NCBI GenBank assembly: GCA_039586755.1
Contig: JBDHJU010000040.1
Location: forward strand, 1,885 to 65,884
Reading direction: 5' to 3'
Length of the DNA stretch: 64,000 nt
DNA from: Gemmatimonadota bacterium
GTDB lineage: Bacteria > Gemmatimonadota > Gemmatimonadetes > Palauibacterales > KS3-K002
Below, piece after piece: positions 5,060 through 23,304 of the stretch (its first letter is position 1; each line of letters opens with the position of its first letter). Below the pieces are notes generated by a model. The model was not told the DNA's origin, did not search any database, and worked only from the letters and a program-made list of their open reading frames with translations. The translations under genes were made by a program, and so were the position numbers.

Positions 5060-6014
5060 GGAGCGGGAAGGTTTCGCTACCCACCGGGTCGAGGTAGATG
5101 AGCCCAGCGGGCAGAGGATCGACCGCTATCTAGCAGACAGACTTCCGCTTTCCCGTTCCCAGATAGTCGCATTGATTGACGCGGGTAGAGTCCGCGTCGC
5201 CGACCGGACTCCCAAGAAGAGCTACATCCCCGAAGTGGGCGACGTCATAGAGGTCGTCGTTCCGCCGCCCGAGCCGATGTTGGCGGTCGCGGAAGAGATC
5301 CCGATCGAGATCGTCTTCGAGGACGAGGGATTTCTCGTTGTGAACAAGCCGGCCGGGATGGTTGTCCACCCGGCCCCCGGCCACCCCCGTGGCACGCTCG
5401 TCAACGCTGTCCTGCACCATGTAGGCCGGCTGTCCCCGGTTGGTGGGGCGCGCAGACCGGGAATCGTTCACCGGCTGGACAAGGACACCTCGGGCTTGAT
5501 CATCGTCGCCAAGGACGAGACGATCCATCGCCGCCTCGCCGGCTCGCTGGCACAGCGTGAGATCGTCCGCCGCTATCTGGCTGCCTGCTGGGGACATCTC
5601 CAGGACGACACCCTGCGGGTTGAGGCGGACGTCGGCCGTCACCAACGCGATCGTAAGCGAATGGCCGTGGTACCGGGCGCGCGGACCGCGGTAACCGAGA
5701 TCCAGCGCATCGAGCGGTGGAAGGCCGCCGATTTGCTCAAGGTCCGACTTCTCACAGGCCGAACCCACCAAATCCGTGTCCATTTGAGACATATCGGCCA
5801 CCCGGTCGTCGGCGACCGACAGTACGGTCAGGGTTGGGAGCGTGGCCTGGAAGGCCGCTGGCCGGGCGACCTGGCAAAACGGGTAAAACGGCAATTCTTA
5901 CACGCGGCGGAGCTGGCCTTTGCGCACCCTGTTTCGGGTGAGCGGCTGGAGCTCTCGGCCCCCCTACCCGGGGACCTGGCGGAAGCCGCAGAATGGGCCC
6001 GCCGGACAAGTTGA
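5046..6014 (+). CDS. rluD: 23S rRNA pseudouridine synthase, RluA/RluD family
   Basis: S4-like N-terminus (RIDRYLADRL), catalytic HRLDKDTSGLIIVAK and GRTHQIRVH. GTG start overlaps the lspA end. Confidence 0.9.
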   Translation: MDPVEEREGFATHRVEVDEPSGQRIDRYLADRLPLSRSQIVALIDAGRVRVADRTPKKSYIPEVGDVIEVVVPPPEPMLAVAEEIPIEIVFEDEGFLVVNKPAGMVVHPAPGHPRGTLVNAVLHHVGRLSPVGGARRPGIVHRLDKDTSGLIIVAKDETIHRRLAGSLAQREIVRRYLAACWGHLQDDTLRVEADVGRHQRDRKRMAVVPGARTAVTEIQRIERWKAADLLKVRLLTGRTHQIRVHLRHIGHPVVGDRQYGQGWERGLEGRWPGDLAKRVKRQFLHAAELAFAHPVSGERLELSAPLPGDLAEAAEWARRTS

Positions 6015-6039
6015 CCGACGCGTTAGTCGTTATTATACT
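6011..6039 (+). promoter_or_regulatory. Sigma70-like promoter for the che-mgl operon: TTGACC-17 nt-TATACT
   Basis: -35 TTGACC (6011-6016, overlapping the rluD stop), a 17-nt spacer, then -10 TATACT (6034-6039). It lies ~70 nt upstream of the cheW start, in the only sizeable gap before the operon. Confidence 0.5.
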
Positions 6040-6111
6040 TGTACTTCCGCGAGTGGCCGCACCGCGAAACCTCCCCCATTTCCCATTAACGTGCTTCGAG
6101 GGTTGCACTGG

Positions 6112-6603
6112 GTGTCGGACTCTGCCAGGCGCCAGCTACTTGTTGAGGTCGGGGGGTGTCTGTTCGCCGCCGCCCCCGACGAGGTTCGCGAGGTGATGGA
6201 TCGGACCGAGGCGACGCCGGTCCCCGGAGCGATACAGGGTGTGCTGGGTCTTCTGAATCGGCGTGGCAAAGTCATCGTCGCCGGAGAACTGGGTGTGTTC
6301 CTGGGTGTGGACTCGAATCCTGGCGAAGAGTCGGCGCTCGTGGTTTTCGCCGACGGCGATAGGCGGATCGCTTTGATGGTGGACCGGGTGATAGGCATGG
6401 CTCCCTATGCGGGGACCGAGCTCGACGTCGAGAGTGATTTGCTGGAGGCGCTTGGTGCCCGAGAGATGGCGTTAGGAGTGGGGCAGTTCGGGCCGCGGCC
6501 GTACATAAGGCTCGATGTGCCGGCGATCTTCGCACGTGTTTTCGATCAGGCCGGAGACCGTGATCGGTCGATACGGCTCGGATCGACGGTAAGACAGGAG
6601 TGA
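6112..6603 (+). CDS. cheW: CheW-like coupling protein
   Basis: Single CheW domain (LLVEVGGCLFAAAPDEVREV...PGAIQGVLGLLNRRGKVI...ALMVDRVIG). GTG at 6112 follows GAGGG; 6091 and 6103 are alternative starts. The upstream part of the ORF-track entry overlaps rluD. Confidence 0.8.
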   Translation: MSDSARRQLLVEVGGCLFAAAPDEVREVMDRTEATPVPGAIQGVLGLLNRRGKVIVAGELGVFLGVDSNPGEESALVVFADGDRRIALMVDRVIGMAPYAGTELDVESDLLEALGAREMALGVGQFGPRPYIRLDVPAIFARVFDQAGDRDRSIRLGSTVRQE

Positions 6604-6606
6604 TTC

Positions 6607-6969
6607 ATGAGCCGCACGGTGCTGATTGTAGACGACGCGATCTTCATGCGGACGATGATCGCTGACATCCTCAAGGGCGCGGACTTCGAGGTCGTGGGTG
6701 AGGCTTCCTCCGGGGCGGAAGCCGTTGAGAAGTATAAGGAGCTCAAGCCTGATCTGGTGACCATGGACATCGTGATGCCCGACATGGGTGGGATCGATGC
6801 GGTTCGCGAGATCATAGAGTTCGACCCCGACGCCAGGATCCTGATGTGCAGCGCAATGGGCCAGCAGGGTCTGGTGGTCGAGGCCATTCAGGCCGGTGCC
6901 CGAGACTTCGTCGTCAAGCCGTTCCAGCCCTCAAGGGTACTCGAGGCAGTGCAACGCTTGTTGGGATGA
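6607..6969 (+). CDS. cheY: CheY-like single-domain response regulator
   Basis: 120 aa REC domain with the acidic pocket (VDDA), phospho-acceptor Asp (VTMDIVMPDMGG), conserved Ser (MCSAMG) and Lys (VVKPF). Confidence 0.93.
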   Translation: MSRTVLIVDDAIFMRTMIADILKGADFEVVGEASSGAEAVEKYKELKPDLVTMDIVMPDMGGIDAVREIIEFDPDARILMCSAMGQQGLVVEAIQAGARDFVVKPFQPSRVLEAVQRLLG

Positions 6970-8549
6970 GCCAGCAGCAGAAATACGCCGAGCTCTTTGC
7001 AGCCGAGGCGCGCGAGCATCTGGCGGAGATGGGTCGCGCGCTCGTTGCTCTAGAAGAGGAACTGGCAGCGGCGATGGGCTACGAGGTTCCGACACGGCTC
7101 GCCCACAACATTGAGTCGGTGCTCGACGAGTTGAGGTCGGGCAGGCGGAAGGTAGGCGCCAAAGTCGTGGACCTTCTGTTGGAGACTTCCGATCTCCTCG
7201 AGGGTGCGGTCGAGGCTACCGTGGCCGGCAAAACGCCGGCCGATCCGTCTTCTGCGATTGAGCGACTGGTACTCTGGCGACTGGCCGACGAAGGTGTGGC
7301 GCAGCAACAGCCACCGGCGGAGGAAACGAGTGCAGCTGAGCAACCATCGCCGGCGTACGAGGCGCAGCGCGTCGCGGCCCCCACCTCGCGACGCTCAGAC
7401 AGCAGTCGCTTGCGCGTTGACATCCGCCGCCTCGATGCACTGATGAACCTGATGGGCGAGTTGATGATCCTGCGCGGCGAACTGAAAGCCCTGGCGGATC
7501 AGCTGGGCGCCGAGTCGCTTCAGGATGCGGTGGAGCGTGCCGGCAGGTTCATCGGCGAGATGCAGGCGCACGTAGTCGGAAGTCGGATGGTGCCTGTTTG
7601 GCAGATCTTCGATCGTTTCCCGCGCCTGGTGCGCGATGCCTCGCGTTCGGTGGGGAAGGAGATCGAGCTCAAGATTACCGGTAAACAACTCGAGCTCGAC
7701 CGATCACTACTAGATGCTATAAGCGATCCACTCGTTCACCTGCTGCGCAACGCTGTGGACCACGGCATCGAGCCTGCTGAAGAGCGCGAGCGCGCCGGTA
7801 AGCCGCGAGTCGGACGTATCGAGCTCGCTGCCCAGCGCGAGCGCTCGCGTCTGGTGATCACCATCCGTGACGATGGCCGGGGCATCGATCGCGAGGTTGT
7901 GGTCGAAAAGGCCAGGCGCGAGGGGCTTCTGGGGGCCGGCGAGGAACCGACGGACCAGATGCTGTTTCGAATCATGGCGCGACCGGGATTCTCGACGGCT
8001 GCGCAGATTACCACGCTGTCCGGCCGCGGAGTCGGGCTCGACGTCGTCGAGACCACCATCCGGGGGCTCGGTGGCTCGGTCGGCTTCAGGAGCGAGCCAG
8101 GTTCCGGCACTTCGTTCCGTCTCGATCTCCCGCTGACCCTGGCCATCCTGCGCGCTCTGATCGTTGAGGTGGACGGTCAGGTCTATGCCGTACCCGCCAC
8201 ATTCACGCGGGAGAGTTTCGAGGTCGAGGAGGAGGCCGTGGAGCGGGCGCACGGTCAGGAGTGGGTTCACTGGGCCGGCGAGCGCGTGCCTCTGACGCGC
8301 CTGCGGACTCTGTTCAACGGTGGAGAGGGCAACGGATCGTCGAAGGACGGAGTCGGCTTCCTGAATCTCGTCGGTCTCGAGTTCGGGGACTCGCGCATGG
8401 TTATCTCGGTCGACGAGTTCCTGGGCGAAGAGGAAATAGTCATCAAGCCATTCGATCCCCCGCGCGGCGCTGTACCCGTGTTCTCCGGTGCTATCGTCCG
8501 GCCGGATGGACGACCGGCCTTGGTGCTGGACGTCGGTAACCTGTCGTGA
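6966..8549 (+). CDS. cheA: CheA-like histidine kinase with atypical P1 and no P2 domain
   Basis: ATGA overlap with cheY. Has the dimerisation segment RVDIRRLDALMNLMGELMI, N-box HLLRNAVDHGIE, G1 DDGRGID, G2 GRGVGLDVV and a C-terminal CheW-like P5. The N-terminal Hpt-like bundle lacks the HxxKG phospho-His helix (see findings). Confidence 0.9.
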   Translation: MSQQQKYAELFAAEAREHLAEMGRALVALEEELAAAMGYEVPTRLAHNIESVLDELRSGRRKVGAKVVDLLLETSDLLEGAVEATVAGKTPADPSSAIERLVLWRLADEGVAQQQPPAEETSAAEQPSPAYEAQRVAAPTSRRSDSSRLRVDIRRLDALMNLMGELMILRGELKALADQLGAESLQDAVERAGRFIGEMQAHVVGSRMVPVWQIFDRFPRLVRDASRSVGKEIELKITGKQLELDRSLLDAISDPLVHLLRNAVDHGIEPAEERERAGKPRVGRIELAAQRERSRLVITIRDDGRGIDREVVVEKARREGLLGAGEEPTDQMLFRIMARPGFSTAAQITTLSGRGVGLDVVETTIRGLGGSVGFRSEPGSGTSFRLDLPLTLAILRALIVEVDGQVYAVPATFTRESFEVEEEAVERAHGQEWVHWAGERVPLTRLRTLFNGGEGNGSSKDGVGFLNLVGLEFGDSRMVISVDEFLGEEEIVIKPFDPPRGAVPVFSGAIVRPDGRPALVLDVGNLS

Positions 8550-8580
8550 TACGCGGATCCACCAGTGAGGGATGGCGTGA

Positions 8581-9198
8581 ATGAACGCGAAGCGTGAGCT
8601 CCATGACAAAGAGCTTGATGCTCTCAAGGAAGTAGCGAACATCGGCGCAGGCCACGCGGCGACGGCACTAAGCCAGCTGACGAGTCGCCGCATCATGATC
8701 GATGTGCCGAAGGTGCAGATTTGCACCATCGAGGAAGCAGCCTCCGCCGTTGGCGATGGTGGGGTGGTTGCCGCCGTGCTCATGCAGGTGTTGGGTGACC
8801 TGACCGGTCGCAGTCTGTTGCTGTTCGAGAAGAATCTGGCGTTGCAGCTCGCCGACATGTTGCTCACTAGGGAGCCCGGGACGACCAAGGTCTTTGCCGA
8901 GTTCGAGCAGTCGGCGCTCAAGGAGACGGCGAACATCTTGACCGGCGCGTACCTGAACGGGCTGTCCGACATGCTGGGGCTAATGCTGATACCGTCGGTG
9001 CCGAGCCTTGCCATCGACCTCAGCACAGCGATTCTGTCCACGGCCTACCTCGACTTCACCTACGAGCAAGGAAACGTCATCATCCTGGACACGCGGTTTC
9101 GATTCGACCCCGGCGACGCCAGCATGTCGGGTCATTTCGTCTTGTTGCCGGACCCGGCGAGTCTTGAAGTGATACTGAAGGCTGCTCGTTTGCTGTGA
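8581..9198 (+). CDS. cheC: CheC-family CheY-P phosphatase
   Basis: Both ExxN-x22-P active-site motifs are present: KEVAN...(22 aa)...P and KETAN...(22 aa)...P. Confidence 0.85.
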   Translation: MNAKRELHDKELDALKEVANIGAGHAATALSQLTSRRIMIDVPKVQICTIEEAASAVGDGGVVAAVLMQVLGDLTGRSLLLFEKNLALQLADMLLTREPGTTKVFAEFEQSALKETANILTGAYLNGLSDMLGLMLIPSVPSLAIDLSTAILSTAYLDFTYEQGNVIILDTRFRFDPGDASMSGHFVLLPDPASLEVILKAARLL

Positions 9199-11897
9199 AT
9201 AAGACGACGGTTCACTCCGAGGGCGACATTAGCATCCTCCGCGCGCTGGCTCAGCGCATCGATCCGGGGGATGCGGGGGCGTATAACAACCTGGGAGTGG
9301 TGTTCTACCAAAAGGGCCTATACGAGGAAGCGATCGAGCAGTTTCGTCGCGCGCTGGCGATTGATGGTAAGATGGAGGTGGCGCGACGGAACCTGGACAT
9401 CGCCTATCATCAGACGGGCTACTACGATCGTCGTATTGCCGAGCTGATCGCTCGCCTGCGCGCCAATGAGGATGACGACGACGCCCGCTACAGCCTCGCC
9501 GAAGCATACTTCAACACCGGCCGCTTCGACGAAGCCATCGTTCAGTATGAGAAGCTGATCGAGAAAAAGCCCGGCAACGTTCGGGTTCTGTTGAGGCTCG
9601 GTGCCGCCGAGAAGCAACGCGGCGAGTTGAAACGGGCCATTGAATGGTTCGAGAAGGCCCGCGAGCTTCAACCCGACCGCCCCTTCATCTACTATTCGTT
9701 GGGCGAGATCCTCTACAACCAGGGGATGAACGAGGAGGCTATCGCCCACCTCCGCAAAGCGCTGCAGCTGAATCCTTCCGTCGCCGAGGTGCACCACCTG
9801 CTGAGCTTCGTCTACGGCGACATCGGTGCGGCCGATAAGGCAGCCGAGCATGCGGCGCATGCCGCTGAGCTCAACCCGGCGGCCACACGGGTACGGGCGA
9901 ACCTCTCGCTCGATCGTTACAGTCCGGCCCAGTACGTCGAGCTCACCGGTAAGGTGGCTGCGCCGAGCGTCGAGGGGGCAAAGGCGTTTGCGCACTACAG
10001 TTTGGGGATCGCCTTTCGAGCACGCGGACTCTACGAAGAGGCGCGACAAGAGTTCACGCGCGGGCGCGAGGCCGGCGAAGATCCGACCTTGATCGATCAA
10101 GCGGAAGCCGAGTTGGCGCTTCTCGAGGGCGACGCGGAGGGGGCATTGGCGAGATACGATTCGCTACTCGCCAGAGTCAGCAACAGCCCCAAGGTCTGGA
10201 ACGAGCGCGGTGTTACGCTCCACCAGGTCGGACGTCTGGACGAGGCCGAGGAGAGCTACCGTCGCGCCCTGGACCTCGACGAAGGCTACGCTTTGGCCTG
10301 GAACAACATTGGGGTGGCGGCCGCGCACCGCGGCGACCAAGAGAGTGCCGAGGCCGCGTTCCGGCGGGCGCTCGAGATTCAAGCCGAGCTGAACGACGCG
10401 CGACTCAATCTGGGGCTGCTCTGGGTGCTGGCCGATAGGCACGATAGCAGTCTTCAGCTGCACCGCGATATGCTGAAGGTGGATTCGAGTCGTGCGGACG
10501 CATGGAACGGCTTGGGCTCGGCGCTGATGGCTATGGACCGGTTCGCCGAGGCGCGCAACGCGTTTGCGCGTGCCGTGGAGGCAAACCCGAACTTCCCGCC
10601 GGCACGCTACAATCTGAGCTTCGCGCTCGCTCGCCTTGGTGAGCATGAGGATGCCCTGCGTGAGACCAAGATGGCGCTGGAGCTCGATCCGTATTACACA
10701 GCGCCACGCTACAAGCTGTCGATCGATCTGCAGTATGAGGGTGGCGACGTGTGGGCGCCGGAGCTGGCGGCACCAGAACGAGTCGCGCCGAAGGATGACG
10801 GGGTCCGTGATTTCGATTTCGATCCGGCGGAGTTGGAGTCGGTCTTCCACGAACTCGAGGGGCCGGAAGCTGAAGAGAAGGAGGCGGCGCCCAGCGAGAC
10901 GTTCGAGTTGGCTCGGGACCATCTCGCAAACGGCCTCTACGATGGGGCGCTCTCCGAAGCCGCACGAGTTCTGCGCGAGGGTGGCGATGCGGGCGAAGGC
11001 GCGCTGATCATCGGTGAGGTCTATCTGCAGCGCGGGCTCTACGGCGAGGCGCTCGAGCGCTTCGAGGAAGCGCGCGCCCTGCGACCTGACGATCCGCAGG
11101 TACTCGCCGGCGCTACCCGCTGTCTGTTGCAGCTTGATCGCGTCGATGAGGCACGGCTGGCGGCGGAAGCCTTGCAGCCGAAGGCGGGCCAGGATGTCAC
11201 GCATCTGCTGATGGTCGGTGAGGCACTGACCCGGTCGGGCGAAGCGAAACGAGCGATGGAGGTGCTCGACCTGGCGGCGCAGCTTGCTCCGCAGGACCCG
11301 GTCGTGCATCGACAGATCGCCAGGGCCGCCCTAGCGGTGGGCAACCGGCGGCGCGCCCGGGATGCCTACCGAAAGGCGATAGCCGAGGACCCGGACTTCA
11401 CGGCGGCGCGTGTGGAATTCGGGCGCCTGTTGGTCGAAGAAGGTGCGTACAGCGAAGCGGAGGCCGAGATTCGACAGGCCCTCGAGCTCATGCCTACCTA
11501 TGCCGACGGCGCCCTGGTGCTCTCCGATTTGCTGAATCGCCAAGGTCGGGGTCGTGAGGCCGTGAACTTGCTCGTGGGTTTCTTGGAAACCGAGCCGTAC
11601 AACCTCGACGCCCTGGTGCTGCTGAGTGAGGCGTTGCTCGCCGAGGGTAAGCGTCGCGACGCGGAACAGGCGCTCGTTCGAGTGGTGCGCTTCGACCCGG
11701 AGCGGCCCGCCGCGCTGTTTCGCCTCGGAGAGCTCACTGCCGAGTCGGGTCGTTACCGCGACGCGCTCGGCTATTGGCGCCGACTCATAGAGGCGGCTCC
11801 GGATAGCGAGTACGCCGCTCGCGCCCGGGTGCAGGCGCGCGTTGCGTTGGGGATGGGTAGCGCCTTTGAGGGCCAGACAGCAGGGAGCGGTGCCTGA
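9195..11897 (+). CDS. Large TPR-repeat protein (900 aa)
   Basis: GTGA overlap with cheC. TPR-like 34-aa repeats (A..Y..AL.L.P....A..NLG) run along the whole length. No signal peptide or TM segment seen. Confidence 0.8.
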   Translation: MNKTTVHSEGDISILRALAQRIDPGDAGAYNNLGVVFYQKGLYEEAIEQFRRALAIDGKMEVARRNLDIAYHQTGYYDRRIAELIARLRANEDDDDARYSLAEAYFNTGRFDEAIVQYEKLIEKKPGNVRVLLRLGAAEKQRGELKRAIEWFEKARELQPDRPFIYYSLGEILYNQGMNEEAIAHLRKALQLNPSVAEVHHLLSFVYGDIGAADKAAEHAAHAAELNPAATRVRANLSLDRYSPAQYVELTGKVAAPSVEGAKAFAHYSLGIAFRARGLYEEARQEFTRGREAGEDPTLIDQAEAELALLEGDAEGALARYDSLLARVSNSPKVWNERGVTLHQVGRLDEAEESYRRALDLDEGYALAWNNIGVAAAHRGDQESAEAAFRRALEIQAELNDARLNLGLLWVLADRHDSSLQLHRDMLKVDSSRADAWNGLGSALMAMDRFAEARNAFARAVEANPNFPPARYNLSFALARLGEHEDALRETKMALELDPYYTAPRYKLSIDLQYEGGDVWAPELAAPERVAPKDDGVRDFDFDPAELESVFHELEGPEAEEKEAAPSETFELARDHLANGLYDGALSEAARVLREGGDAGEGALIIGEVYLQRGLYGEALERFEEARALRPDDPQVLAGATRCLLQLDRVDEARLAAEALQPKAGQDVTHLLMVGEALTRSGEAKRAMEVLDLAAQLAPQDPVVHRQIARAALAVGNRRRARDAYRKAIAEDPDFTAARVEFGRLLVEEGAYSEAEAEIRQALELMPTYADGALVLSDLLNRQGRGREAVNLLVGFLETEPYNLDALVLLSEALLAEGKRRDAEQALVRVVRFDPERPAALFRLGELTAESGRYRDALGYWRRLIEAAPDSEYAARARVQARVALGMGSAFEGQTAGSGA

Positions 11898-15297: not shown

Positions 15298-16472
15298 GCG
15301 CTGCCATCGATCCGTCGTTGACCTTCGCCAATTTCGTGGTCGGGCAGGAAAATCGCCTGGCATGCGAGGCGGCGCGCACCGCCTCTGAGTCGCCGGGCTC
15401 TGCCTATAACCCCCTGTTCATCTACAGCGATACCGGTCTCGGAAAGACCCATTTGCTGATCGCGCTCGCCAATCGTGCCAAAGAGTTGCAGCCGGATCTG
15501 AAGGTCGTCTATGTGCCGCTCGAAGAGCTGATGCGGGCGCTGTCCAGCACCGACGACTCCGATTCGTCATACCGGGACGCGGATATCCTCCTGATCGACG
15601 ATCTGCAGTTCATCGGTGACCACCGTCAGGGTCACCAGATACTCTTTCACCTCCTCGATCACCTGCTGATGGCGGGTAAGCAGGTAGCCCTCGCCTGTGA
15701 CCGCCCGCCGTTGGAGTTGGGCGAGCTCGACGACCGGCTGCTGTCACGTTTCAGTGGCGGCCTGGTTGTTGACATAGGGCGGCCGACACTGGAAACGCGA
15801 CGGGCGATTCTAGAGCTGCGTCTTTCCGCCTTTGGCCAGGACCTGAGAGCGGAGGTCGTCGACGCGATCGCGCGGCGCGCGATAGAGAACGTGCGCCAGT
15901 TGAATGGGGCGCTGAACAGAATACTTGCGGCTCAGAGGTCGGAGGGGCGCGAGGTAGAGGCCGATGAGGTGGATCGCCTGCTCGCAGATGTAGTTTCGGA
16001 TGCCGACATGCCGTGGCTGGCCGAAGCGGCGCAGCGTACGGGAGCCGAGTTCGAGGATTTTCTTACCGACGTCTCCAGCGCGGTCGAGGAAGCGCTCGGT
16101 TCTCCGAAATGGCGCGAGGATCTCGCCCGGGCGATCCTCAAATGGGAGGGCGAAGGATACGTTACTAGTCGGCTCGAGTCGTATCTCGAAGGTGATGAGA
16201 CGGTCGACGCCCAAGAGGTGGTTGCCGCCTACGAGCGTGACGTCGCGACGCTCAGATCGATCGAGGAAGAACTGGGCCGGCTCGATGCCGAGGTCCAGGA
16301 CAGTCAGGTCGTGAAGGACCCAGAGCGTATCGAGCAGGCCAGGCAACTGCTGGAGGAAGCGCGCCGTTCCAACCTGGCGGTCGACGATTTCTTCTTCGAT
16401 GATGAGAAGGTTGTCTGGGAGTGGCCGGTAATAGAGGAGCAACTGATGGAGGGCTGGAGCGATGGCTATTAA
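15294..16472 (+). CDS. DnaA-like AAA+ ATPase (domain III only) with an acidic C-terminal extension
   Basis: LTFANFVVGQENRLA, YNPLFIYSDTGLGKTHLL (Walker A), ILLIDDLQF (Walker B), RLLSRFSGGLVVDI and VRQLNGALNRI match DnaA/Hda domain III. No domain I and no domain IV helix-turn-helix. GTGA overlap with mglA. Confidence 0.8.
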   Translation: MSAAIDPSLTFANFVVGQENRLACEAARTASESPGSAYNPLFIYSDTGLGKTHLLIALANRAKELQPDLKVVYVPLEELMRALSSTDDSDSSYRDADILLIDDLQFIGDHRQGHQILFHLLDHLLMAGKQVALACDRPPLELGELDDRLLSRFSGGLVVDIGRPTLETRRAILELRLSAFGQDLRAEVVDAIARRAIENVRQLNGALNRILAAQRSEGREVEADEVDRLLADVVSDADMPWLAEAAQRTGAEFEDFLTDVSSAVEEALGSPKWREDLARAILKWEGEGYVTSRLESYLEGDETVDAQEVVAAYERDVATLRSIEEELGRLDAEVQDSQVVKDPERIEQARQLLEEARRSNLAVDDFFFDDEKVVWEWPVIEEQLMEGWSDGY

Positions 16473-18093
16473 AGGCAGCCTTAAAGAAGCCAGCCTGCCT
16501 GATGTTCTCCAGCTCCTCACCATGGGAGGTAAGACGGGCTGCCTATCTGTCACGGACCGGCAGAGCTTCGGTTACATCTATTTCGAGGAAGGCCGGATTA
16601 TCTACGCCTCGCTGCTCAATCGACGCGACCGGATCGGGGATATCCTGGTGCGGGAGGCTGTGATTTCGCGTGAACAGTTGGACGCAGCGATCGAGGAGCA
16701 GAGTGCCACTCGCGACGGCCGACGCTTGGGCGAGATCCTCAAAGACAGCGGGTATATCGAGCAGGACACACTGCACAGGTGGGTGCGCTATCAGATCGAG
16801 GAGGCAGTGTACCACCTGTTCACCTGGAGCCAGGGCACGTTCTACTTCGAGCCGGGCCAGCGCCCCGATCGGGAGCAGATACTGGTCTCGATCGACCCCG
16901 AGAGCCTGTTGCTGGAGGGAGCGCGGCGAGTTGACGAATGGAGCCAGATAGAGAAGAAAGTCTCGTCGCTCGAGTTGGTCTTTTCGTTGCACCCTGAGCG
17001 GTCACAAGCGATATCGTCGCTCAACCTCACCGAGGAACAGCAAAAGCTACTCCCGTTGCTGGATGGTAAGCACAGCGGTTGGGACATCATCGAAGAGACC
17101 GCGCTGGGTGAGTTCGAGGTAGGTAAGGCGCTCTTCGGTTTGGTGACTGCCGGGTTGATCCGCCGGGTTGGAAGGCGCGAACGGAAATCTCCGCGGGCCG
17201 AGGCTCGGGCCAGGGTGAATGAGCACCGTAACCTGGGTGTGGCGTTCTACCGAACCGGAATGTACGACGAGGCTGTACGTGAGTTGAGGCAGGTGCTCGA
17301 GCTCGAGCCCGAGGCACTGGATGCCGAGTTCTTCTTGGGGCTCGTGGCACTCCGCCGCGGTGACCTGGATGCGGCCGAGAAGAAGTTCGTCGAGATCATG
17401 GAGGCCGGCGCGGTCCAACCCGCGCTATACAACGACCTCGCCCTAGTGCTGGCGGGCCAGGGCAAACTGGGGCAGGCGGCAGCGCTGCTCGACGAGGGAC
17501 TCGAGAAGACCCAAGCTCACCCGAAGCTTCTGCTGACAAAGGCTGTGTGCCAGTTGAAGCTAGGCGATTCCGCGGCATCGAAGAGCACACTCGACGCTTT
17601 CGCAGCGGTCGCGAGCGGGGAGTTGCCGCCTCTGTACTACTCGACGCGCGCGCTGGCCGAGGCGATGTCAGCCGACCTGGATTCGGCGGCTGAGATGGCG
17701 GCCGAAGGTGTGGAACGGCATCCGAGCTCGGCAGCGCTTGCCAACAACGCCGGCGTGATCATGGAGAGGAAGGGCGACCTGGAGGGTGCCCGGGTGCTGT
17801 ACGAGAAGGCGTTCGAGCAGGACTCGGCGCTCCCACAAGCGTCCAAGAATCTGGGTGACCTTCTGTATCGAGAGGGCCTGTACGACAAAGCTGCCGAGGC
17901 CTACAAGCGGGCACTGCGTGCCAACCCGAATCTCGGAGACGACGTGTACGCCAAGCTGGGCAACGTCTACTACAAAGGGCGCGATCGCGAGAAGGCAGTC
18001 GAGATGTGGAGGCGAGCGCTTGAAATCAACCCCGCCAACGAGGTCGTGCGCACGAACCTTGAATTCGTGAAGGGCGATGCCGGCGACGGGTGA
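16462..18093 (+). CDS. PATAN (DUF4388) domain protein with C-terminal TPR array
   Basis: N-terminus IKGSLKEASLPDVLQLLTMGGKTGCLSV...IYFEEGRIIYA is the DUF4388/PATAN signature. The ~300 aa C-terminus is TPR. Confidence 0.78.
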   Translation: MAIKGSLKEASLPDVLQLLTMGGKTGCLSVTDRQSFGYIYFEEGRIIYASLLNRRDRIGDILVREAVISREQLDAAIEEQSATRDGRRLGEILKDSGYIEQDTLHRWVRYQIEEAVYHLFTWSQGTFYFEPGQRPDREQILVSIDPESLLLEGARRVDEWSQIEKKVSSLELVFSLHPERSQAISSLNLTEEQQKLLPLLDGKHSGWDIIEETALGEFEVGKALFGLVTAGLIRRVGRRERKSPRAEARARVNEHRNLGVAFYRTGMYDEAVRELRQVLELEPEALDAEFFLGLVALRRGDLDAAEKKFVEIMEAGAVQPALYNDLALVLAGQGKLGQAAALLDEGLEKTQAHPKLLLTKAVCQLKLGDSAASKSTLDAFAAVASGELPPLYYSTRALAEAMSADLDSAAEMAAEGVERHPSSAALANNAGVIMERKGDLEGARVLYEKAFEQDSALPQASKNLGDLLYREGLYDKAAEAYKRALRANPNLGDDVYAKLGNVYYKGRDREKAVEMWRRALEINPANEVVRTNLEFVKGDAGDG

Positions 18094-18886
18094 TGACACC
18101 GCTTATGCTGCACTGTTCGCGAAGATCGAGCGCGAGCGGGGCTTTCGTGGGAATCTCTACCGGCAGAAGTGCTTGCGCCGTAGGGTCGGCGTACGGATGC
18201 GCGCTCGCGGTCTTACGAGCATCGATGACTACTCGGCGCTGCTCGATACCGATCCTGCCGAATACGACTGGCTTCTGCGCGCCCTGACCATCAACGTCAG
18301 CAAGTTTTTCCGCAACAAGGAAACGTGGGACGTTATCGGCAACGAGTTGCTGCCAGGGCTGCTGGCCCGGGGGGAGCCGGTTCTTCTGTGGAGCGCCGGA
18401 TCGGCGGCCGGCGAAGAGGCGTACAGCCTGGCGATCCTGGTGCGGGAGCGACTGGCGGCCGGCGGGCAGTGTGAGGTGAACGGTGTGCGTATCATCGGTA
18501 CCGATATCGATGAGGATAGTCTCGAGCTCGCCCGCTCGGCGGAATACCCGGAGGTCGCCCTGGTCGAGACACCGGAGGAGGTTCGGCGACGCTGGTTCGT
18601 TCCCGGGCCCATGAACCGGCTTAAGGACCCGATACCTTCTATGGTGGAATTCCGAAAAGTCGACATCCTGGAAAGCAGCCCGGATTTCGAGGCGGATCTC
18701 ATCCTCTGCCGTAACCTGCTCATATACCTGGACCGACCGGCCCAGGGCCGTGTCTTCGAGATGTTTGTCGATGTTTTACGACCGGGGGGCTACCTGGTAT
18801 TGGGCCGGGTGGAGATGCTCGGCCGGGAGGTGAAGGAGCACTTCGACGTGGTTGACGGGCGAGAGAGGATATACCAGCGGCGGTGA
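18077..18886 (+). CDS. cheR: CheR chemotaxis methyltransferase
   Basis: FFRNKETWD, the SAM-binding LLWSAGSAAGEEAYSLAI, and DLILCRNLLIYL. Confidence 0.9.
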   Translation: MPATGDDTAYAALFAKIERERGFRGNLYRQKCLRRRVGVRMRARGLTSIDDYSALLDTDPAEYDWLLRALTINVSKFFRNKETWDVIGNELLPGLLARGEPVLLWSAGSAAGEEAYSLAILVRERLAAGGQCEVNGVRIIGTDIDEDSLELARSAEYPEVALVETPEEVRRRWFVPGPMNRLKDPIPSMVEFRKVDILESSPDFEADLILCRNLLIYLDRPAQGRVFEMFVDVLRPGGYLVLGRVEMLGREVKEHFDVVDGRERIYQRR

Positions 18887-19359
18887 GGATCTTCGTTCCG
18901 ATGGGCGATCGTCGCGTTGGTCAGGGCGAGGGGACGCTATCGATCACAGGCCTAGGCTCTTGTGTGGCGATCGTTTTGTACGATGAGGCGAGCCACGTGG
19001 GGGGCCTGGCACACGTGCTCCTGCCGGACCGCTCTTTCTCGAAGCGCGACCGCTGCTGGCTGTTCGTGACGGAGGCCGTCCCGGCGCTGCTCGATGAGCT
19101 GGCGGAAGCCGGGGCCGTGCGTAGTCGTCTCACCGCACGGCTGGTTGGTGGTGCCGCCATGTTTGAGGACCTGGCGCCGCAGGACAGGCCTAACATCGGC
19201 CGGCGCAACATCTCGGCGGCGCGAAAGGTGCTCGCCAGGGTTGGGATCCCCATCGTCGCCGAGGATGTGGGCGGCGGTTTCGGCCGCTCGATCGACTTTG
19301 AATTGTCGAACGGTCGTATAGTTGTCACCTCGCAGGGGAAGAGCCGTGTCGAAATCTGA
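18883..19359 (+). CDS. cheD: CheD chemoreceptor glutamine deamidase
   Basis: ITGLGSCVAIVLYD...GGLAHVLLP carries the catalytic Cys/His context. 158 aa. GTG at 18883, or ATG at 18901. Confidence 0.88.
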   Translation: MRIFVPMGDRRVGQGEGTLSITGLGSCVAIVLYDEASHVGGLAHVLLPDRSFSKRDRCWLFVTEAVPALLDELAEAGAVRSRLTARLVGGAAMFEDLAPQDRPNIGRRNISAARKVLARVGIPIVAEDVGGGFGRSIDFELSNGRIVVTSQGKSRVEI

Positions 19360-20434
19360 GCGCGGCGCATCCGGCAGCACCGTCCTGGTGGTAGATGACA
19401 GTGTGTTCATGCGGCGCATGATCTCGGACATGATCGATCGCTTCCCTGGGTTCCACGTGGCGGGTACAGCGTCCGACGGTAAGGAAGCATTGCGGCGCAT
19501 AGAAGAGCTCGCGCCCGACGTGGTGACGCTAGATATCGAGATGCCGCGTCTCGATGGGTTCGGTGTGCTCGAGCGCGTCATGTCGACACGACCGCGGCCA
19601 ATCGTAGTCTTCTCGGCCTACACCGATACCGGATCGACTGCTGCGCTGCGGGCACTCGATCTCGGCGCCGTCGACTTTGTAGCCAAGCCCTCAGGACCGA
19701 TTTCCTTCGACCTCGGCCGAGTGGAAGCACGGCTTTACGAGGCTTTGCGGGCCGCAGTGGCCGCAGATGTCGAGGTGCTGATCGCCGAACGGACGTTGGA
19801 GGCCGAACCTGTGGTCGCCCCAGTCATCGGCGGCGAAGCGGCGGTGGCCATCGCCGCTTCCACCGGGGGGCCGCGGGCGCTTTCACAGGTTCTCCGCGCC
19901 TTACCTTCCGACCTGGGTGCAGCGGTGCTCATCGTTCAGCATATGCCGCCGGGTTTCACATCGACGCTGGCGGAACGCTTGAGCGGCTTGGCGTCGCTAC
20001 CAGTGGAGGAGGCGAGTGGGGGTGAGACCGTAAGGCCGGGCCGGGTCTGGCTCGCTCCCGGCGACTTCCACATGCGGGTGAGGCGGATCGACGGGACGGT
20101 GAAGATCACGCTCGATCAGCGCGAGTCGATGTGGGGCACGCGACCGGCGGCAGACGCACTCTTTCCAAGCGTCGCCGAGGCCTTCGGGGGTCGCTCGGTG
20201 GGCGTTGTGCTGACCGGTATGGGTCGAGACGGTGCCAACGGTCTGGCGGCGATCCGGGCGAGCGGCGGTCGAACGATAGCCCAGGACAAGGCGACCAGTG
20301 TTGTCTACGGGATGCCCGGTCGCGCCGTGGAGCAGGGAGCGGCCGAACACATTGTCTCTCTGGACGGGATAGCGGGTGCCATCGTCGAGTGCCTCGCTGA
20401 ACTTCCGGCCCGCGAGGCCGACGCGAGCCAATGA
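19346..20434 (+). CDS. cheB: CheB methylesterase (REC + esterase)
   Basis: REC domain (VLVVDDS, VTLDIEMP, FVAKP) plus esterase Ser (ASTGGPRAL), His (VQHMPPGFT) and Asp (GMGRDGA). GTG at 19346 is preferred over the TTG at 19322. Confidence 0.9.
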   Translation: MSKSERGASGSTVLVVDDSVFMRRMISDMIDRFPGFHVAGTASDGKEALRRIEELAPDVVTLDIEMPRLDGFGVLERVMSTRPRPIVVFSAYTDTGSTAALRALDLGAVDFVAKPSGPISFDLGRVEARLYEALRAAVAADVEVLIAERTLEAEPVVAPVIGGEAAVAIAASTGGPRALSQVLRALPSDLGAAVLIVQHMPPGFTSTLAERLSGLASLPVEEASGGETVRPGRVWLAPGDFHMRVRRIDGTVKITLDQRESMWGTRPAADALFPSVAEAFGGRSVGVVLTGMGRDGANGLAAIRASGGRTIAQDKATSVVYGMPGRAVEQGAAEHIVSLDGIAGAIVECLAELPAREADASQ

Positions 20435-21405
20435 GCAACCTGATCACGTTCCGATTGGGCGATTCGCGGTTTGCGATCCCGGCCGACGTGGTAACCGAGA
20501 TCGTCGAGGCCGGCTCGATCGAGCACCGCCTGCCTGGGGACAAGGGTGCCCAAGTTGGTCTGGCCCGCGTCCGCGACCGCTGGATACCTGTGGTCGAGCT
20601 GGCCGGCGCCATCAGCGGCGTGCCGAGTTTGGATCCGGATTCACCGGACGCATTGCTGCTGGTGCTGGGCCGGGAGCGTGGCCGGTTGGGCCTGCGAGTT
20701 CAGGGCCCGGGCGAAGTCGTCCAGGGAAGGGCGGCACGGTCGCCAAATGACCGGTCGGATGACTTGCTCGAGCTAGATGGTGAGATGGTCCGTTTTGTCG
20801 ACCCGGCGGCGCTTGTCGCTTCTCGGGCCGAGCTGCTTGGAGAGAAGGGAGAATCCATGGTGGATCGAGATGTCGCTGCCGAGCCGCTGCGCGTGGTGAG
20901 GTTCCAGCTCGGCGACGACGAATTCGGTATCGATGTGATGAAGGTCTTCGAGGTGATTCCGGTGCCGAAGGTGCGCCCCGTACCCAAAGCGCCCGCCTTC
21001 GTCGAAGGTGTCGTCGACATTCGCGACTCGATTGTCCCGGTAATCGACATGCGCAAACGCTTTAGTCTGCCGCCGAGAGAAACGGACGAGTCCAGCCGGC
21101 TGCTGATTGTAGCGATCGGCGAATCCCGGGCCGGTTTGGTCGTCGACACGGTTCCCGGCGTGGTACCTTTAGCCGAAGACGCGGTGAGCACGCCGCCTGA
21201 CTTCTTCCGCGGCTTGGCAGGAAGGTACCTCGAAGGTCTCGCTAAGGACGATGATCGCATGATCATCATGCTCAACGTCGGCGAAATTCTCAGCTCGAAG
21301 GAGAAGATAGCCCTCGAGAAGGTCGTCGATTCCGCGAAGCCCGCAGGCCGCGCCAAGGGTAAGAAGCGCGCGCCGCGGCGCAGCAAGAAGAAGTCGGAAG
21401 GTTGA
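20431..21405 (+). CDS. Tandem CheW-CheW coupling protein with a polybasic tail
   Basis: Two CheW domains (ITFRLGDSRFAIPADVV... and VVRFQLGDDEFGIDVMKVFEV...VEGVVDIRDSIVPVIDMRKRF). C-terminal tail is AKGKKRAPRRSKKKSEG. Confidence 0.85.
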   Translation: MSNLITFRLGDSRFAIPADVVTEIVEAGSIEHRLPGDKGAQVGLARVRDRWIPVVELAGAISGVPSLDPDSPDALLLVLGRERGRLGLRVQGPGEVVQGRAARSPNDRSDDLLELDGEMVRFVDPAALVASRAELLGEKGESMVDRDVAAEPLRVVRFQLGDDEFGIDVMKVFEVIPVPKVRPVPKAPAFVEGVVDIRDSIVPVIDMRKRFSLPPRETDESSRLLIVAIGESRAGLVVDTVPGVVPLAEDAVSTPPDFFRGLAGRYLEGLAKDDDRMIIMLNVGEILSSKEKIALEKVVDSAKPAGRAKGKKRAPRRSKKKSEG

Positions 21406-22256
21406 CCGGCATCGACCCGCTGTCGCCACTGCTAGGCCGATACCGTGAGCTGGAAGACGCTCTGGCCCGCGCTCAGGATGCGGCGGAATCCGCTCGCTTG
21501 GGTGCGATGGCCTCGGAACTTTTGGATACCCTGAAACAGTTGGAAGGGCGATTGGCGGAGTTGCGGGAGATGCTCCGCCAGTTGATGGACCGTCACGGAA
21601 TTCTGCCTGATTTACCAGCAGGCTCGGTGGGTCTTCCACCGGCGGCGGCGGAGCGCCGAAGTGATCTGGGCGGCGGCCAGGTGGCAAAAGGGTGGAACCT
21701 GCTTCGCTCTGCCGACTATGGTGGTGCGATTGAGTTGTTGAAGGAGGCGCTCGACCTGGCGCCGGACGATCCGGGTGTCCTATCGTCCCTGGGCTGGGCA
21801 CAGACGATATCGCAGGCTTACGACGAAGCGCTGGCTACGTACCAGCACTTGTTGGCGGTTAGCCCAGAGGACACGCTGGCCCGCGTCAACCTGGGGTACA
21901 TTTGCCTGAGGAAAGGGATCTACGGCGAGGCGATCGAGCACCTGTCGAAGGCGATCCGGGGCTCGACCGATCCGAGGGCGGGTATGTACGGTCGCTACTA
22001 TCTCGGCCTGGTGTACCTGGCGCGAGAGATGTACGAGGACGCGGAATCGTTCCTGCACGAGGCCGTGGAGCTGGACCCGACGATGAGCGAGGCGTCGTTC
22101 CAGCTGGGACGAGCACGCTACCTTGCCGGCCGGAAAGCGGAAGCGATCTCGGCCTGGAAAGATGGGGCTGCGGCGCCGCAGGGCGACTTCTGGGCAAGCC
22201 GTTGTGCCGAGGCGGCACGGAGCGCCGAGTCCGGCGTCCAGCCATTGCTCGACTGA
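21402..22256 (+). CDS. Coiled-coil + TPR protein
   Basis: 284 aa with a helical/coiled-coil N-terminus followed by TPR repeats. TTGA overlap with the upstream gene. Confidence 0.7.
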   Translation: MTGIDPLSPLLGRYRELEDALARAQDAAESARLGAMASELLDTLKQLEGRLAELREMLRQLMDRHGILPDLPAGSVGLPPAAAERRSDLGGGQVAKGWNLLRSADYGGAIELLKEALDLAPDDPGVLSSLGWAQTISQAYDEALATYQHLLAVSPEDTLARVNLGYICLRKGIYGEAIEHLSKAIRGSTDPRAGMYGRYYLGLVYLAREMYEDAESFLHEAVELDPTMSEASFQLGRARYLAGRKAEAISAWKDGAAAPQGDFWASRCAEAARSAESGVQPLLD

Positions 22257-23239
22257 CCCCCAGCCTCACCCTTCTCCTCCTCCTCCTCCTCGGTGCAGCA
22301 CACCCGGCACAGGCTGGCCAGGTACCTCCCCAAGGTGAGATCCGCACGGGTTCGCTGGTCTTTCGCTTTTGGCCCGGCCAGGAAGCGGCGGCTGAGGCGC
22401 TCGCCGGCAGCGTGGCCGGCACCCGTGCGCTCCCCGGGCTGCCGCCGGATATTCTCGACACGGGAGAGATCGTCGTCTACTTGGCGCCGGACGAGGCGAC
22501 GTACGATTCGTTGGCGCCCGGCGCCCCCGACTGGAGCGGCGGCCTGGCGTTCCCGGAGGGTGACCGGATCATCCTGCCGACCTTCGGTCCGCGGGCAGGG
22601 GGGAGGCCGTTGGCGACCGTCCTCCGACACGAGCTGGCTCACGTAGGCCTCGCGCGGCAGCTCGGGTCGGCGGTGCCTCGCTGGTTCCATGAGGGTTACG
22701 CGCAGCTGGCGTCGGGAAGCTGGAACGCCGGGAACGCATGGGCTCTGCGGATCGCGATTCTCCAGGGCCGCTTGGAGTCACTGGAGTCGCTGAGCCTCGA
22801 TTTCGCCCGCGGTCGCGTCAGTGCCGATCATGCCTATCTCCTCTCCTACACGGCCGTAGAGTTCCTCTATAGACTGGGCGGTGCGGAGGGGTTCGCCCGG
22901 CTGTTGGAACGCTGGCGCGAGATGGGCTCGCTCGACCCGGCCCTCCGACGAACCTACGGGCTGACGCTGGGGCAATTCGAGCGTCTGTGGCGCAGAGACG
23001 TTGGCCGGCGCTTCGGCTGGCTTCTCGTCCTGGCTCAGGCGGCCGTCTTCTGGACCGTCCTGACGATCCTTTTGCTGATTCTGGGGTATTGGAAGAAAAG
23101 ACGAACCCGTCAAAAACTGGTGGCGCTCGAGGCAGCGGTGGCGGCCCGCGAAGCCAATGCACTCCTTGAGGCTACGGCGGAAGGCGGCCCGGCTGGCCGT
23201 GGCCCCGACGTGATTGACGGGGTAAGTCGAAGCGAATAG
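22202..23239 (+). CDS. Membrane-anchored zinc metallopeptidase-like protein (peptidase MA-type HExxH)
   Basis: RHELAHV plus a downstream WFHEGYAQ. Signal-peptide-like N-terminus (RRPAIARLTPSLTLLLLLLLGAAHPAQA) and a C-terminal TM helix followed by KKRR. Start is uncertain: TTG at 22202 is proposed. The ORF-track N-terminus overlaps the TPR gene. Confidence 0.6.
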   Translation: MCRGGTERRVRRPAIARLTPSLTLLLLLLLGAAHPAQAGQVPPQGEIRTGSLVFRFWPGQEAAAEALAGSVAGTRALPGLPPDILDTGEIVVYLAPDEATYDSLAPGAPDWSGGLAFPEGDRIILPTFGPRAGGRPLATVLRHELAHVGLARQLGSAVPRWFHEGYAQLASGSWNAGNAWALRIAILQGRLESLESLSLDFARGRVSADHAYLLSYTAVEFLYRLGGAEGFARLLERWREMGSLDPALRRTYGLTLGQFERLWRRDVGRRFGWLLVLAQAAVFWTVLTILLLILGYWKKRRTRQKLVALEAAVAAREANALLEATAEGGPAGRGPDVIDGVSRSE

Positions 23240-23284
23240 GTTTGGGCGGTTCAAGACCCGAAATCTTACGCTTGGCAAGAAGAC

Positions 23285-23304
23285 GCGGGCCGCACGCGGC
23301 CCGC
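23285..23304 (+). terminator. GC-rich hairpin after the operon (GCGGGCCG-cacg-CGGCCCGC)
   Basis: Perfect 8-bp stem with a 4-nt loop, 46 nt after the last operon stop. No U-tract follows, so intrinsic-terminator function is uncertain. Confidence 0.4.

Follow-up and report, generated by a model that had tools for sequence, protein, structure and literature searches.

A Gemmatimonadota gene cluster, conserved in order, in which che genes of apparent flagellar type enclose a predicted MglA/MglB polarity module

We analysed a 64-kb stretch of Gemmatimonadota DNA (contig JBDHJU010000040.1; 'the window' hereafter means this whole stretch, the G+C content of which is approximately 64%), in which 18 consecutive plus-strand genes fill positions 6112–23239. 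In this block, the two halves of a chemosensory (che) gene set flank genes for the small GTPase MglA, for MglB and for a group of scaffold-like proteins (the mgl module). The interleaved order was the same in 35 of 36 related loci of at least 19 kb, from both Gemmatimonadales and Longimicrobiales, as determined by tblastn of the window proteins. Based on this conservation, the che and mgl genes form a conserved unit, as had been claimed in a first-pass annotation made by a model from the DNA letters, and not a chance juxtaposition. We consider it likely that the block is a phylum-wide conserved operon of Gemmatimonadota, and that its che and mgl modules serve one process.

The related loci were collected by a genome scan with MglA at one genome per species, from which the best 80 loci were returned. 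All were titled Gemmatimonadota, Gemmatimonadales or Longimicrobiales except for four (Solirubrobacterales, Acidimicrobiia and two 'bacterium'), which were taken to be mis-binned or unclassified records; the scan thus gave only Gemmatimonadota-type loci, with no relatives outside this phylum. Similarly, the MglA homologs of 70–95% identity with source names came from Gemmatimonadota or Longimicrobiales, and the exact MglA sequence occurs on JGI metagenome contigs. The conserved order reads rluD-(cheW)-cheY-cheA-cheC-TPR900-PATAN1-(TPR-Robl)-(Robl)-mglB-mglA to the left and (DnaA-like)-PATAN2-cheR-(cheD)-cheB-(cheW2)-(TPR284)-(peptidase) to the right of mglA. Most of the products are 25–60% identical across loci, and by far the most conserved are CheY (74–98% across 50 Gemmatimonadota) and MglA (67–98% across the Gemmatimonadota loci). 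The same order was found in every metagenome locus with enough flank. In a metagenome scan by alignment of the AAA+ protein, all 14 loci covering most of the protein adjoined mglA, within a che–mgl cluster where the contig was long enough, and the remaining matches were ordinary dnaA genes. A reduced cluster was detected in L077 and L079 (also in L084 and L086), in which no DnaA-like gene, cheD, double cheW gene, TPR284 or peptidase gene is present; the minimal set given by this reduced form is cheW, cheY, cheA, cheC, TPR900, PATAN1, Roadblock, mglB, mglA, PATAN2, cheR and cheB.

The tight packing of 18 same-strand genes described in the first-pass annotation agreed with the open reading frame (ORF) list and the junction analysis, and the domains and gene order named there were confirmed by Pfam searches of all 18 products, on which the following domain calls are based (aa, amino acids; TPR, tetratricopeptide repeat; MCP, methyl-accepting chemotaxis protein):

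6011–6039, plus strand: promoter-like element TTGACC-17-TATACT, 5′ of cheW, 10/12 consensus match
6112–6603, plus strand: cheW, 163 aa, single CheW domain (Pfam E = 9.7e-16)
6607–6969, plus strand: cheY, 120 aa, F1-type single-domain response regulator (Pfam Response_reg, E = 1e-30)
6966–8549, plus strand: cheA, 527 aa, P1 remnant, P3, P4 and P5, no P2 (Pfam H-kinase_dim, HATPase_c and CheW)
8581–9198, plus strand: cheC, 205 aa, CheY-P phosphatase family (Pfam CheC, E = 1e-21, plus CheX)
9195–11897, plus strand: all-TPR cytoplasmic protein (TPR900), 900 aa, TPR matches along its full length, no transmembrane segment
11897–13030, plus strand: PATAN (DUF4388) plus TPR protein 1, 377 aa (Pfam DUF4388, E = 6e-29, and TPR)
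13011–13817, plus strand: TPR plus Roadblock protein, 268 aa (Pfam TPR; Robl_LC7 22.8 bits, cut-off 23)
13820–14182, plus strand: stand-alone Roadblock protein, 120 aa (108 aa by the gene caller; Pfam Robl_LC7 36.4 bits)
14183–14671, plus strand: mglB, 162 aa, directly 5′ of mglA (Pfam Robl_LC7 30.6 bits, cut-off 23)
14674–15297, plus strand: mglA, 207 aa, group-1 MglA small GTPase by sequence (Pfam Arf/Ras-like GTPase)
15294–16472, plus strand: AAA+ ATPase of the DnaA domain III type, 392 aa, C-terminal domain helical and novel (Pfam Bac_DnaA, E = 1.5e-46)
16462–18093, plus strand: PATAN (DUF4388) plus TPR protein 2, 543 aa (Pfam DUF4388, E = 3e-41, and TPR)
18077–18886, plus strand: cheR, 269 aa, MCP methyltransferase (Pfam CheR_N and CheR)
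18883–19359, plus strand: cheD, 158 aa (131 aa from a later start), MCP deamidase/CheC partner (Pfam CheD, E = 4e-27)
19322–20434, plus strand: cheB, 370 or 362 aa (Pfam Response_reg and CheB_methylest, E = 2e-66)
20431–21405, plus strand: double-CheW-domain protein, 324 aa (Pfam CheW in two stretches, E = 5e-50)
21402–22256, plus strand: TPR protein (TPR284), 284 aa (Pfam TPR families), present in most related loci
22253–23239, plus strand: Peptidase_MA_2 HExxH metalloprotease (Pfam 56.5 bits), HELAH motif
23284–23305, no strand assigned: GC-rich hairpin 3′ of the last gene, nine pairs, eight of them G–C

With the starts used in the first-pass annotation, the junctions measure 3, −4, 31, −4, −1, −20, 2, 0 and 2 nt up to mglB/mglA, and −4, −11, −17, −4, −38, −4, −4 and −4 nt thereafter (negative values denote overlaps). 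Stop/start overlaps span both borders between the che and mgl genes, with 4 nt at cheC/TPR900 and 17 nt at PATAN2/cheR. The gene caller, on a sibling contig of 99.99% identity, placed later starts for the stand-alone Roadblock gene, cheD, cheB and the peptidase gene; gaps of up to approximately 155 nt then arise, and the block stays unbroken. No membrane segment was predicted in the first 17 products, leaving the peptidase as the sole non-cytoplasmic product. The element annotated as promoter-like at 6011–6039 proved to be the best promoter consensus match within 5000–24500, and it is kept in L009, L010 and L012, where CheW is only 50–57% identical, but the number of such sites in this region is not above chance (four found; 2.9 ± 1.6 expected). 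This element may act as the promoter of the block. The GC hairpin annotated after the block also exists, but its T-run lies on the minus strand, with none on the plus strand; it may nevertheless serve as a terminator for the plus strand.

At the centre of the block, MglA aligned over 193 residues, with 60% identity, to a sequence taken as M. xanthus MglA, and it keeps the P-loop GPGRSGKT, the DRT motif (intrinsic Arg finger), TVPGQ and NKRD. A P-loop, an intrinsic arginine finger by the G2 threonine, the G3 motif TVPGQ and the G4 motif NKxD are the hallmarks of group-1 MglA (Wuichet and Sogaard-Andersen 2015). Judged by these motifs, the MglA of the window is a true group-1 MglA. The mglB stop codon lies 2 nt 5′ of mglA, and MglB matched the solved MglB chains of M. 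xanthus and T. thermophilus (E = 5e-11 to 2e-8). This MglB is a divergent member of its family, because its score against the NCBIfam Thermus-type equivalog was 49 bits, with a cut-off of 200. MglB is the GTPase-activating protein (GAP) of MglA, and the MglB of the window is predicted to be a Roadblock-fold GAP of the adjacent MglA. The Roadblock domain of the TPR-Roadblock protein was marginal in Pfam (22.8 bits, cut-off 23) and was backed by hhalign of profiles built from orthologs, in which its C-terminal part matched the Roadblock profile of its neighbour with 96.3% probability (E = 1.8e-9). Likewise, the stand-alone Roadblock protein matched the MglB profile with 94.5% probability. Since these profile matches link all three proteins, we conclude that three Roadblock paralogs are encoded in tandem. 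Assignment of the stand-alone Roadblock protein as MglC was considered and rejected: it gave no significant match to a solved structure, and is MglC-like in size and position only. A second group-1 MglA of G. aurantiaca, GAU_1409, is flanked by PATAN genes and has no adjacent MglB (supplementary table, PMC4316618), and Gemmatimonadota may carry two MglA modules.

CheW, CheY, CheR and CheB all scored above the Pfam cut-off, and the F1-class auxiliary proteins CheC and CheD (Pfam CheC/CheX and CheD) are both present. The solved structure best matched by CheY was that of T. maritima CheY (E = 6e-51), and archaeal and Bacillus CheY were likewise among the top structures. CheY is 66% identical to sequences taken as T. 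maritima and B. subtilis CheY and 31% identical to E. coli CheY; in its C-terminal half, which includes the α4-β5-α5 partner face, nearly every position is at least 90% conserved among 50 Gemmatimonadota. CheR best matched the solved entry 5ftw, presumably B. subtilis CheR, and CheA P3–P5 scored approximately equally against the solved chains 6s1k (654 aa) and 1b3q (379 aa), presumably those of E. coli and T. maritima, respectively. Because of the 66% identity of CheY to these Thermotoga and Bacillus sequences, the che genes look like an ordinary flagellar-type set of the Bacillus/Thermotoga (F1-like) kind. CheY and the CheB N-terminus are the only receivers encoded in the block, and CheA ends in its CheW-like P5 domain with no receiver. 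The count of three CheW domains in the first-pass annotation stood as such, but four CheW-like domains are present once CheA P5 is included. A FliM-like CheY-binding peptide was also sought in the cluster; the sole regular-expression match, ADEVDRLLADVV, lies in the AAA+ protein, where it presumably represents the conserved linker helix between DnaA domains III and IV, and was discarded.

A variant without most of the che genes bears on how the two modules are connected. In L007 (CP070722.1, a complete genome of 4.09 Mb; locus at 4079–14449), cheW, cheA, cheC, cheR, cheD, cheB and the double cheW gene are cleanly absent from the cluster, and cheY lies directly 5′ of an intact mgl core, with its phosphorylation residues intact. 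This CheY is 88% identical to that of the window, compared with 88–90% in che-bearing relatives at a similar distance, indicating that its divergence is not relaxed. Since only cheY is kept beside the mgl core in L007, this variant points to CheY as the link between the che and mgl modules.

TPR900 was kept in all related loci and is, by analogy with SgmX, a candidate MglA effector or scaffold. The DUF4388 matches of both PATAN-TPR proteins are split into two stretches by an α-helical insertion. The insertion of PATAN protein 1 is MshEN-like and degenerate, and that of PATAN protein 2 (residues ~57–107; window ~16630–16782) matched the NCBIfam model NF053729, 'c-di-GMP-binding, MshE-related', with 55.7 bits over residues 57–107 (cut-off 38). 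MshEN-type c-di-GMP receptors carry two tandem 24-residue motifs of the form RLGxxLLxxGxIxxxxLxxxLxxQ, and PATAN protein 2 contains both, as RIGDILVREAVISREQLDAAIEEQ and RLGEILKDSGYIEQDTLHRWVRYQ. This motif was partly kept among 81 orthologs. PATAN protein 2 is a putative binding protein for cyclic di-GMP (c-di-GMP).

The AAA+ gene lies directly 3′ of mglA wherever the flank suffices, and 5′ of the second PATAN gene where the contig extends. Residues 5–259 of its product matched DnaA structures, with a model 40% identical to domain III of B. subtilis DnaA, and the Walker A and B motifs, an RLLSRF box and NVRQLxGAL are invariant in 24 homologs. The match to TIGR00362 covered only positions 103–343 of 437 with 248.7 bits (cut-off 343.9), the score against the Hda model was 91.5 (cut-off 194.8), and neither a Pfam domain IV match nor domain I was detected. 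Identification as DnaA or Hda was therefore rejected, since the protein falls below both curated cut-offs and is without domains I and IV. The C-terminal domain of 130 residues (window 16071–16469) was found in 177 representative clusters out of 1.84 billion; an AlphaFold model (pLDDT 73.5) searched with Foldseek gave only N-terminally driven matches to DnaA and other AAA+ proteins for its fold. This domain forms 6–10 repeats in a few proteins of more than 1000 aa. In other Gemmatimonadota, the AAA+ protein is 585–660 aa long with a duplicated AAA+ part (for example, L008 10640–12397).

We propose a two-module scheme for this locus. Module 1 would be a complete soluble F1-like Che core, with MCP receptors encoded elsewhere, divided into an excitation half on the left (CheW, CheY, CheA and CheC) and an adaptation half on the right (CheR, CheD, CheB and the double CheW protein). 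Module 2, between these halves, would be a polarity module of MglA, MglB and two more Roadblock paralogs (one of them fused to TPR), together with TPR900, two PATAN-TPR proteins (one with a c-di-GMP-type motif) and the DnaA-derived AAA+ ATPase. The receptors would control CheA, and CheY would be phosphorylated by CheA and dephosphorylated by CheC, as expected from what is known of these families. CheY-P would then act on an MglB/Roadblock/TPR complex and shift the GTP/GDP balance or the polar location of MglA, in analogy to FrzX, FrzZ and RomR acting on MglB, MglC and MglA in Myxococcus. MglA-GTP would in turn recruit the PATAN and TPR proteins, which would act on a motility organelle at the pole (the motor of the type IV pili or the flagellum), and c-di-GMP would provide an additional input via the second PATAN protein.

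That CheY-P signals into the Mgl module in this direction is the reading we favour, tentatively, as a plausible one. The conserved order in 35 of 36 loci despite identities of mostly 25–60%, the tiny junctions and the conserved promoter-like site argue for it, as do the outstanding conservation of CheY and MglA, the cheY gene kept beside the mgl core in L007, the MshEN-type motif of PATAN protein 2, the all-TPR partners of MglA and the PATAN–mgl neighbourhoods known from other bacteria, and the MCP genes present elsewhere in Gemmatimonas. Several points weigh against it. Co-transcription of the 18 genes is something we infer from spacing only, and contact of CheY with proteins of the Mgl module is hypothetical. 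CheY is of the orthodox flagellar/archaellar type and cultured Gemmatimonas has a single polar flagellum, so that CheY-P may simply go to FliM. No pilus, gliding or flagellar genes were found in the window or in the loci examined, and nothing resembling RomR, FrzS or FrzZ is among the products of the cluster. In addition, only one genome represents the che-less variant, and this genome, CP070722.1, may encode a CheA outside the cluster. A more specific form of the scheme, in which phosphorylated orthodox CheY directly gates the MglA/MglB/Roadblock switch and the single-operon circuit, with c-di-GMP and the DnaA-derived AAA+ protein, picks the active pole, appears doubtful at present.

The best-surviving alternative, which we regard as possible but rather unlikely, is that the che genes constitute an ordinary flagellar pathway with CheY-P going to FliM, and that the mgl module positions the chemoreceptor arrays, the polar flagellum or both at the correct pole, as ParC/ParP or FlhF/FlhG do in other polar flagellates, with no phospho-signal into MglA. 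The operon would then be shared because both modules serve the same organelle. The 66% identity of CheY to the T. maritima and B. subtilis sequences named above, with a near-identical α4-β5-α5 face, agrees with this explanation, as do the Bacillus-type CheC, CheD and CheR and the polar flagellum of Gemmatimonas with its MCPs encoded elsewhere. At high calcium, CheA and an MCP gene of Gemmatimonas are reported to be specifically upregulated, and che and fli genes slightly upregulated; the response of both sets to the same condition also supports an ordinary flagellar pathway. Moreover, the double-CheW protein and the TPR scaffolds are reminiscent of ParP, which has a CheW-like domain. Retention of the whole mgl module together with cheY in L007 would, however, be odd for mere placement of Che arrays. 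The cluster encodes no ParA/MinD-type or FlhF-type protein, and we know of no report of MglA positioning flagella or chemoreceptor arrays. The full cluster is also present in metagenome-assembled genomes of Longimicrobiales, and cultured Longimicrobium is described as non-motile.

An involvement in the cell cycle or division, in which pole identity is tied to replication or division through the MglA module and the che genes form an input unrelated to motility (an 'alternative cellular function'), is improbable. It is suggested by the DnaA domain III paralog, which has all ATPase motifs and follows mglA directly where the flank suffices, and by the position of the cluster between rluD and a TPR-mraZ...ftsZ region in the window and in L007. 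This adjacency to the division cluster is found only in close relatives, however, and the downstream genes of L008 are unrelated. The AAA+ protein is without the DNA-binding domain IV and domain I, its gene is missing in L077 and L079, which keep che and mgl, and CheY is of the motility type.

We also find little probability in the view that the gene sets are unrelated and that an mgl block was once inserted into a che operon (genomic hitch-hiking). Two clean che halves do flank the mgl block, they can be cleanly deleted as in L007, and the che–mgl interaction is deduced rather than seen. The order, however, has been kept across orders of the phylum while identities fell to 25–50%, stop and start codons overlap at the che/mgl borders, and cheY was retained with the mgl core.

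The remaining question concerns the receptor. As stated in the first-pass annotation, no MCP signalling domain is encoded in the window: MCPsignal gave no Pfam match in any of the 18 products, a scan of 19 other window ORFs detected housekeeping families or none and no MCP, and phmmer searches with MCP signalling-domain queries against all six-frame window ORFs gave nothing better than E = 0.1. An MCP hidden in one of the scaffold proteins was rejected on the basis of the same Pfam and six-frame phmmer searches. Likewise, phmmer gave no MCP signalling domain at E ≤ 1e-3 within 10 kb on either side of mglA in 88 related loci. CheR, CheB and CheD act on the methylation helices of MCPs, and the strict conservation of these three proteins therefore argues that an MCP is their substrate. 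It is common for MCP genes to lie scattered, apart from che operons, and in G. phototrophica the locus-tag number of the MCP gene GEMMAAP_RS00390 is far from that of CheA (GEMMAAP_RS15835). The missing receptor is probably encoded elsewhere in the genome, and a receptor-less reading is unsupported because cultured Gemmatimonas have a polar flagellum and carry their MCP genes at other sites. The truly receptor-less system of the first-pass annotation, in which soluble TPR/PATAN scaffolds replace MCPs as partners of CheW and CheA and as substrates of CheR, CheB and CheD, would fit the absence of MCP domains from the window and the 88 flanks and the many TPR/PATAN proteins and extra CheW domains of the operon, but it is highly improbable given that the MCP-specific CheR, CheB and CheD are all conserved with canonical domains, that the scaffolds are without any MCPsignal match, and that distant MCP genes are common, as in G. 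phototrophica.

Compared with known systems, the closest parallel to the proposed signalling from CheY-P to MglA is the Frz–MglA system of Myxococcus, in which the Frz pathway acts on MglA/MglB via receiver proteins and Roadblock adaptors encoded at separate loci. In both, group-1 MglA and its Roadblock GAP MglB would serve one process together with a kinase pathway of the Che type. The extra Roadblock paralog MglC of Myxococcus has two counterparts here, the candidate single-domain receiver link is FrzX there and CheY here, and the large all-TPR protein proposed as an MglA effector by analogy, TPR900, would take the place of SgmX. SgmX, an all-TPR protein, binds MglA-GTP and activates pili; SgmX and Bd2492 are known MglA partners. 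Unlike the separate Myxococcus loci, the che and mgl genes here are interleaved in one predicted operon, from a different phylum of which at least some members are polar flagellates. There is no CheA-receiver fusion (FrzE), no cytoplasmic MCP (FrzCD), no dual-receiver FrzZ and no RomR; the che set appears to be of the Bacillus/Thermotoga type with CheC and CheD, and the locus additionally encodes PATAN-TPR proteins, a membrane metalloprotease and an AAA+ protein derived from DnaA. Since CheA has no receiver, no MCP is encoded and the only receivers are CheY and CheB, we do not count this locus as a member of the Frz systems; the resemblance would be one of functional analogy only.

A second parallel is provided by the cyanobacterial Tax/Pix systems, in which PATAN proteins with an α-helical insertion are likewise encoded inside che-like operons. 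In cyanobacteria, PATAN provides the output to a polar or localized motility machine, binding the pilus motor proteins PilB/PilC in Synechocystis, and its α-helical 'clip' insertion is related to the GspE_N/MshEN repeat. PatA-type regulators carry a C-terminal receiver, whereas both PATAN proteins here carry TPR instead; they would therefore not be directly phosphorylatable, and an assignment as PatA-type regulators was rejected for want of a receiver domain. The cyanobacterial operons include an MCP-type photoreceptor and are without MglA/MglB, the reverse of the operon described here, which has mglA and mglB and no MCP gene. ParC/ParP of Vibrio and Pseudomonas, a model for the array-positioning alternative, offer a third parallel, in that a nucleotide-switch protein and a CheW-domain scaffold are encoded among the flagellar che genes of polar-flagellated bacteria. 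In the present locus, a Ras-like GTPase and its Roadblock GAP stand in place of a ParA-type ATPase, and no ParP-type protein was identified in the cluster. Bdellovibrio bacteriovorus offers a further case of MglA in a polar flagellate with a TPR partner (Bd2492), with RomR there.

The functional pairing of Che with MglA/MglB (Myxococcus), PATAN proteins in che-like operons (cyanobacteria) and MglA–PATAN neighbourhoods are already known. Such neighbourhoods, with mglA/mglB often adjoining PATAN genes, were described by Makarova et al. (2006) and Wuichet & Sogaard-Andersen (2015), with no che genes there, unlike here. Group-1 MglA neighbourhoods vary widely in the 2015 small-GTPase survey, the table of which gives G. 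aurantiaca GAU_1115 only as 'MglB>MglA>' (Wuichet & Sogaard-Andersen). No description of an interleaved che–mgl operon was found in full-text literature searches, in agreement with the first-pass annotation, which knew of no characterized system of this composition. The new element, not found described, is thus an interleaved phylum-wide operon that combines F1-like Che proteins with MglA/MglB, three Roadblock proteins, PATAN-TPR and all-TPR proteins and a DnaA-derived AAA+ protein.

The connection from a Che kinase to MglA/MglB is only partly understood; this holds even for Myxococcus, in which genetics revealed the link between the scattered genes. The operon described here represents a compact and testable parts list: CheY, three Roadblock proteins, an SgmX-like TPR protein, two PATAN-TPR proteins and a DnaA-derived ATPase. 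It also indicates that MglA modules occur beyond gliding or twitching bacteria, in polar flagellates with a flagellar-type Che set, and the cultured Gemmatimonas species make the predictions testable. If gating by CheY were true, the coupling of Che to MglA, so far known from Myxococcus alone, would have an earlier origin and a wider distribution than assumed, and the gene order would record a direct Che–MglA link.

The cheA gene of the window itself is altered. Compared with L001, L003, L009, L010 and L012, it has an in-frame deletion of 57 nt (19 codons) at ~7062/7063, with 3-nt microhomology at the junction. The lost peptide, PGDQASLDAIFRSVHTIKG, includes the phospho-accepting histidine of the Hpt (P1) domain, and because of this deletion no Pfam Hpt match was obtained for the window CheA. 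The motif around the phospho-accepting histidine is intact in L001, L003, L009, L010, L012 and L008, and the cheA gene of CP070812.1, the nearest complete genome and a carrier of the cluster, is also intact. The window and L001 are 99.99% identical, with only three substitutions outside the deletion in an overlap of 20 kb. Since the exact CheA product without this histidine is not on record elsewhere, the deletion reflects either an assembly artefact or a rare strain variant with loss of function; in the latter case, the phosphorelay of this strain would be dead. The loss of the histidine had not been mentioned in the first-pass annotation.

For the peptidase at the end of the block, the annotated HExxH motif and membrane character were confirmed, the latter by a predicted C-terminal transmembrane helix (residues 254–272), but the annotated start was not canonical. 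The orthologs are 324–333 aa long, and the codon at their start in the window (22253) reads CTG; a canonical start (GTG) is not reached until 22412, giving a product of 275 aa without a signal-peptide-like N-terminus. The CTG codon at 22253 overlaps the upstream stop codon (CTGA), and its use would yield a signal-peptide-like N-terminus, MTPSLTLLLLLLLGAAHPAQA. Identification as a flagellinolysin was rejected, with a score of 37 bits against a cut-off of 205.

The block is preceded in the window by ileS, a dksA-like gene, lspA and rluD, and is followed by tRNA-Val, a TPR protein gene, mraZ and a division/cell-wall cluster through ftsZ, beyond which recG, a class II (Asp/Asn/Lys-type) aminoacyl-tRNA synthetase gene, alr and others are located. 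The tRNA was the sole RNA gene detected by an Rfam scan of the window. Directly 3′ of the hairpin, a conserved ORF of 67 aa with two hydrophobic stretches (23335–23538) was observed, which is 67–71 aa long in L001, L007 and L008; a promoter-like site (23564–23592) and tRNA-Val (anticodon TAC; 23617–23690) follow it. On a rough gene map, no obvious ftsA was seen within 40364–41065, next to an ORF with FtsZ (41065–42801), the tubulin domain of which begins only at residue 220 of 578, after a long N-terminal extension. Also inside the division/cell-wall cluster, an ORF of 812 aa (36297–38735) joins the N-terminal domain of a MurG-type glycosyltransferase to a complete MurC-like Mur ligase, an apparent murG–murC fusion.

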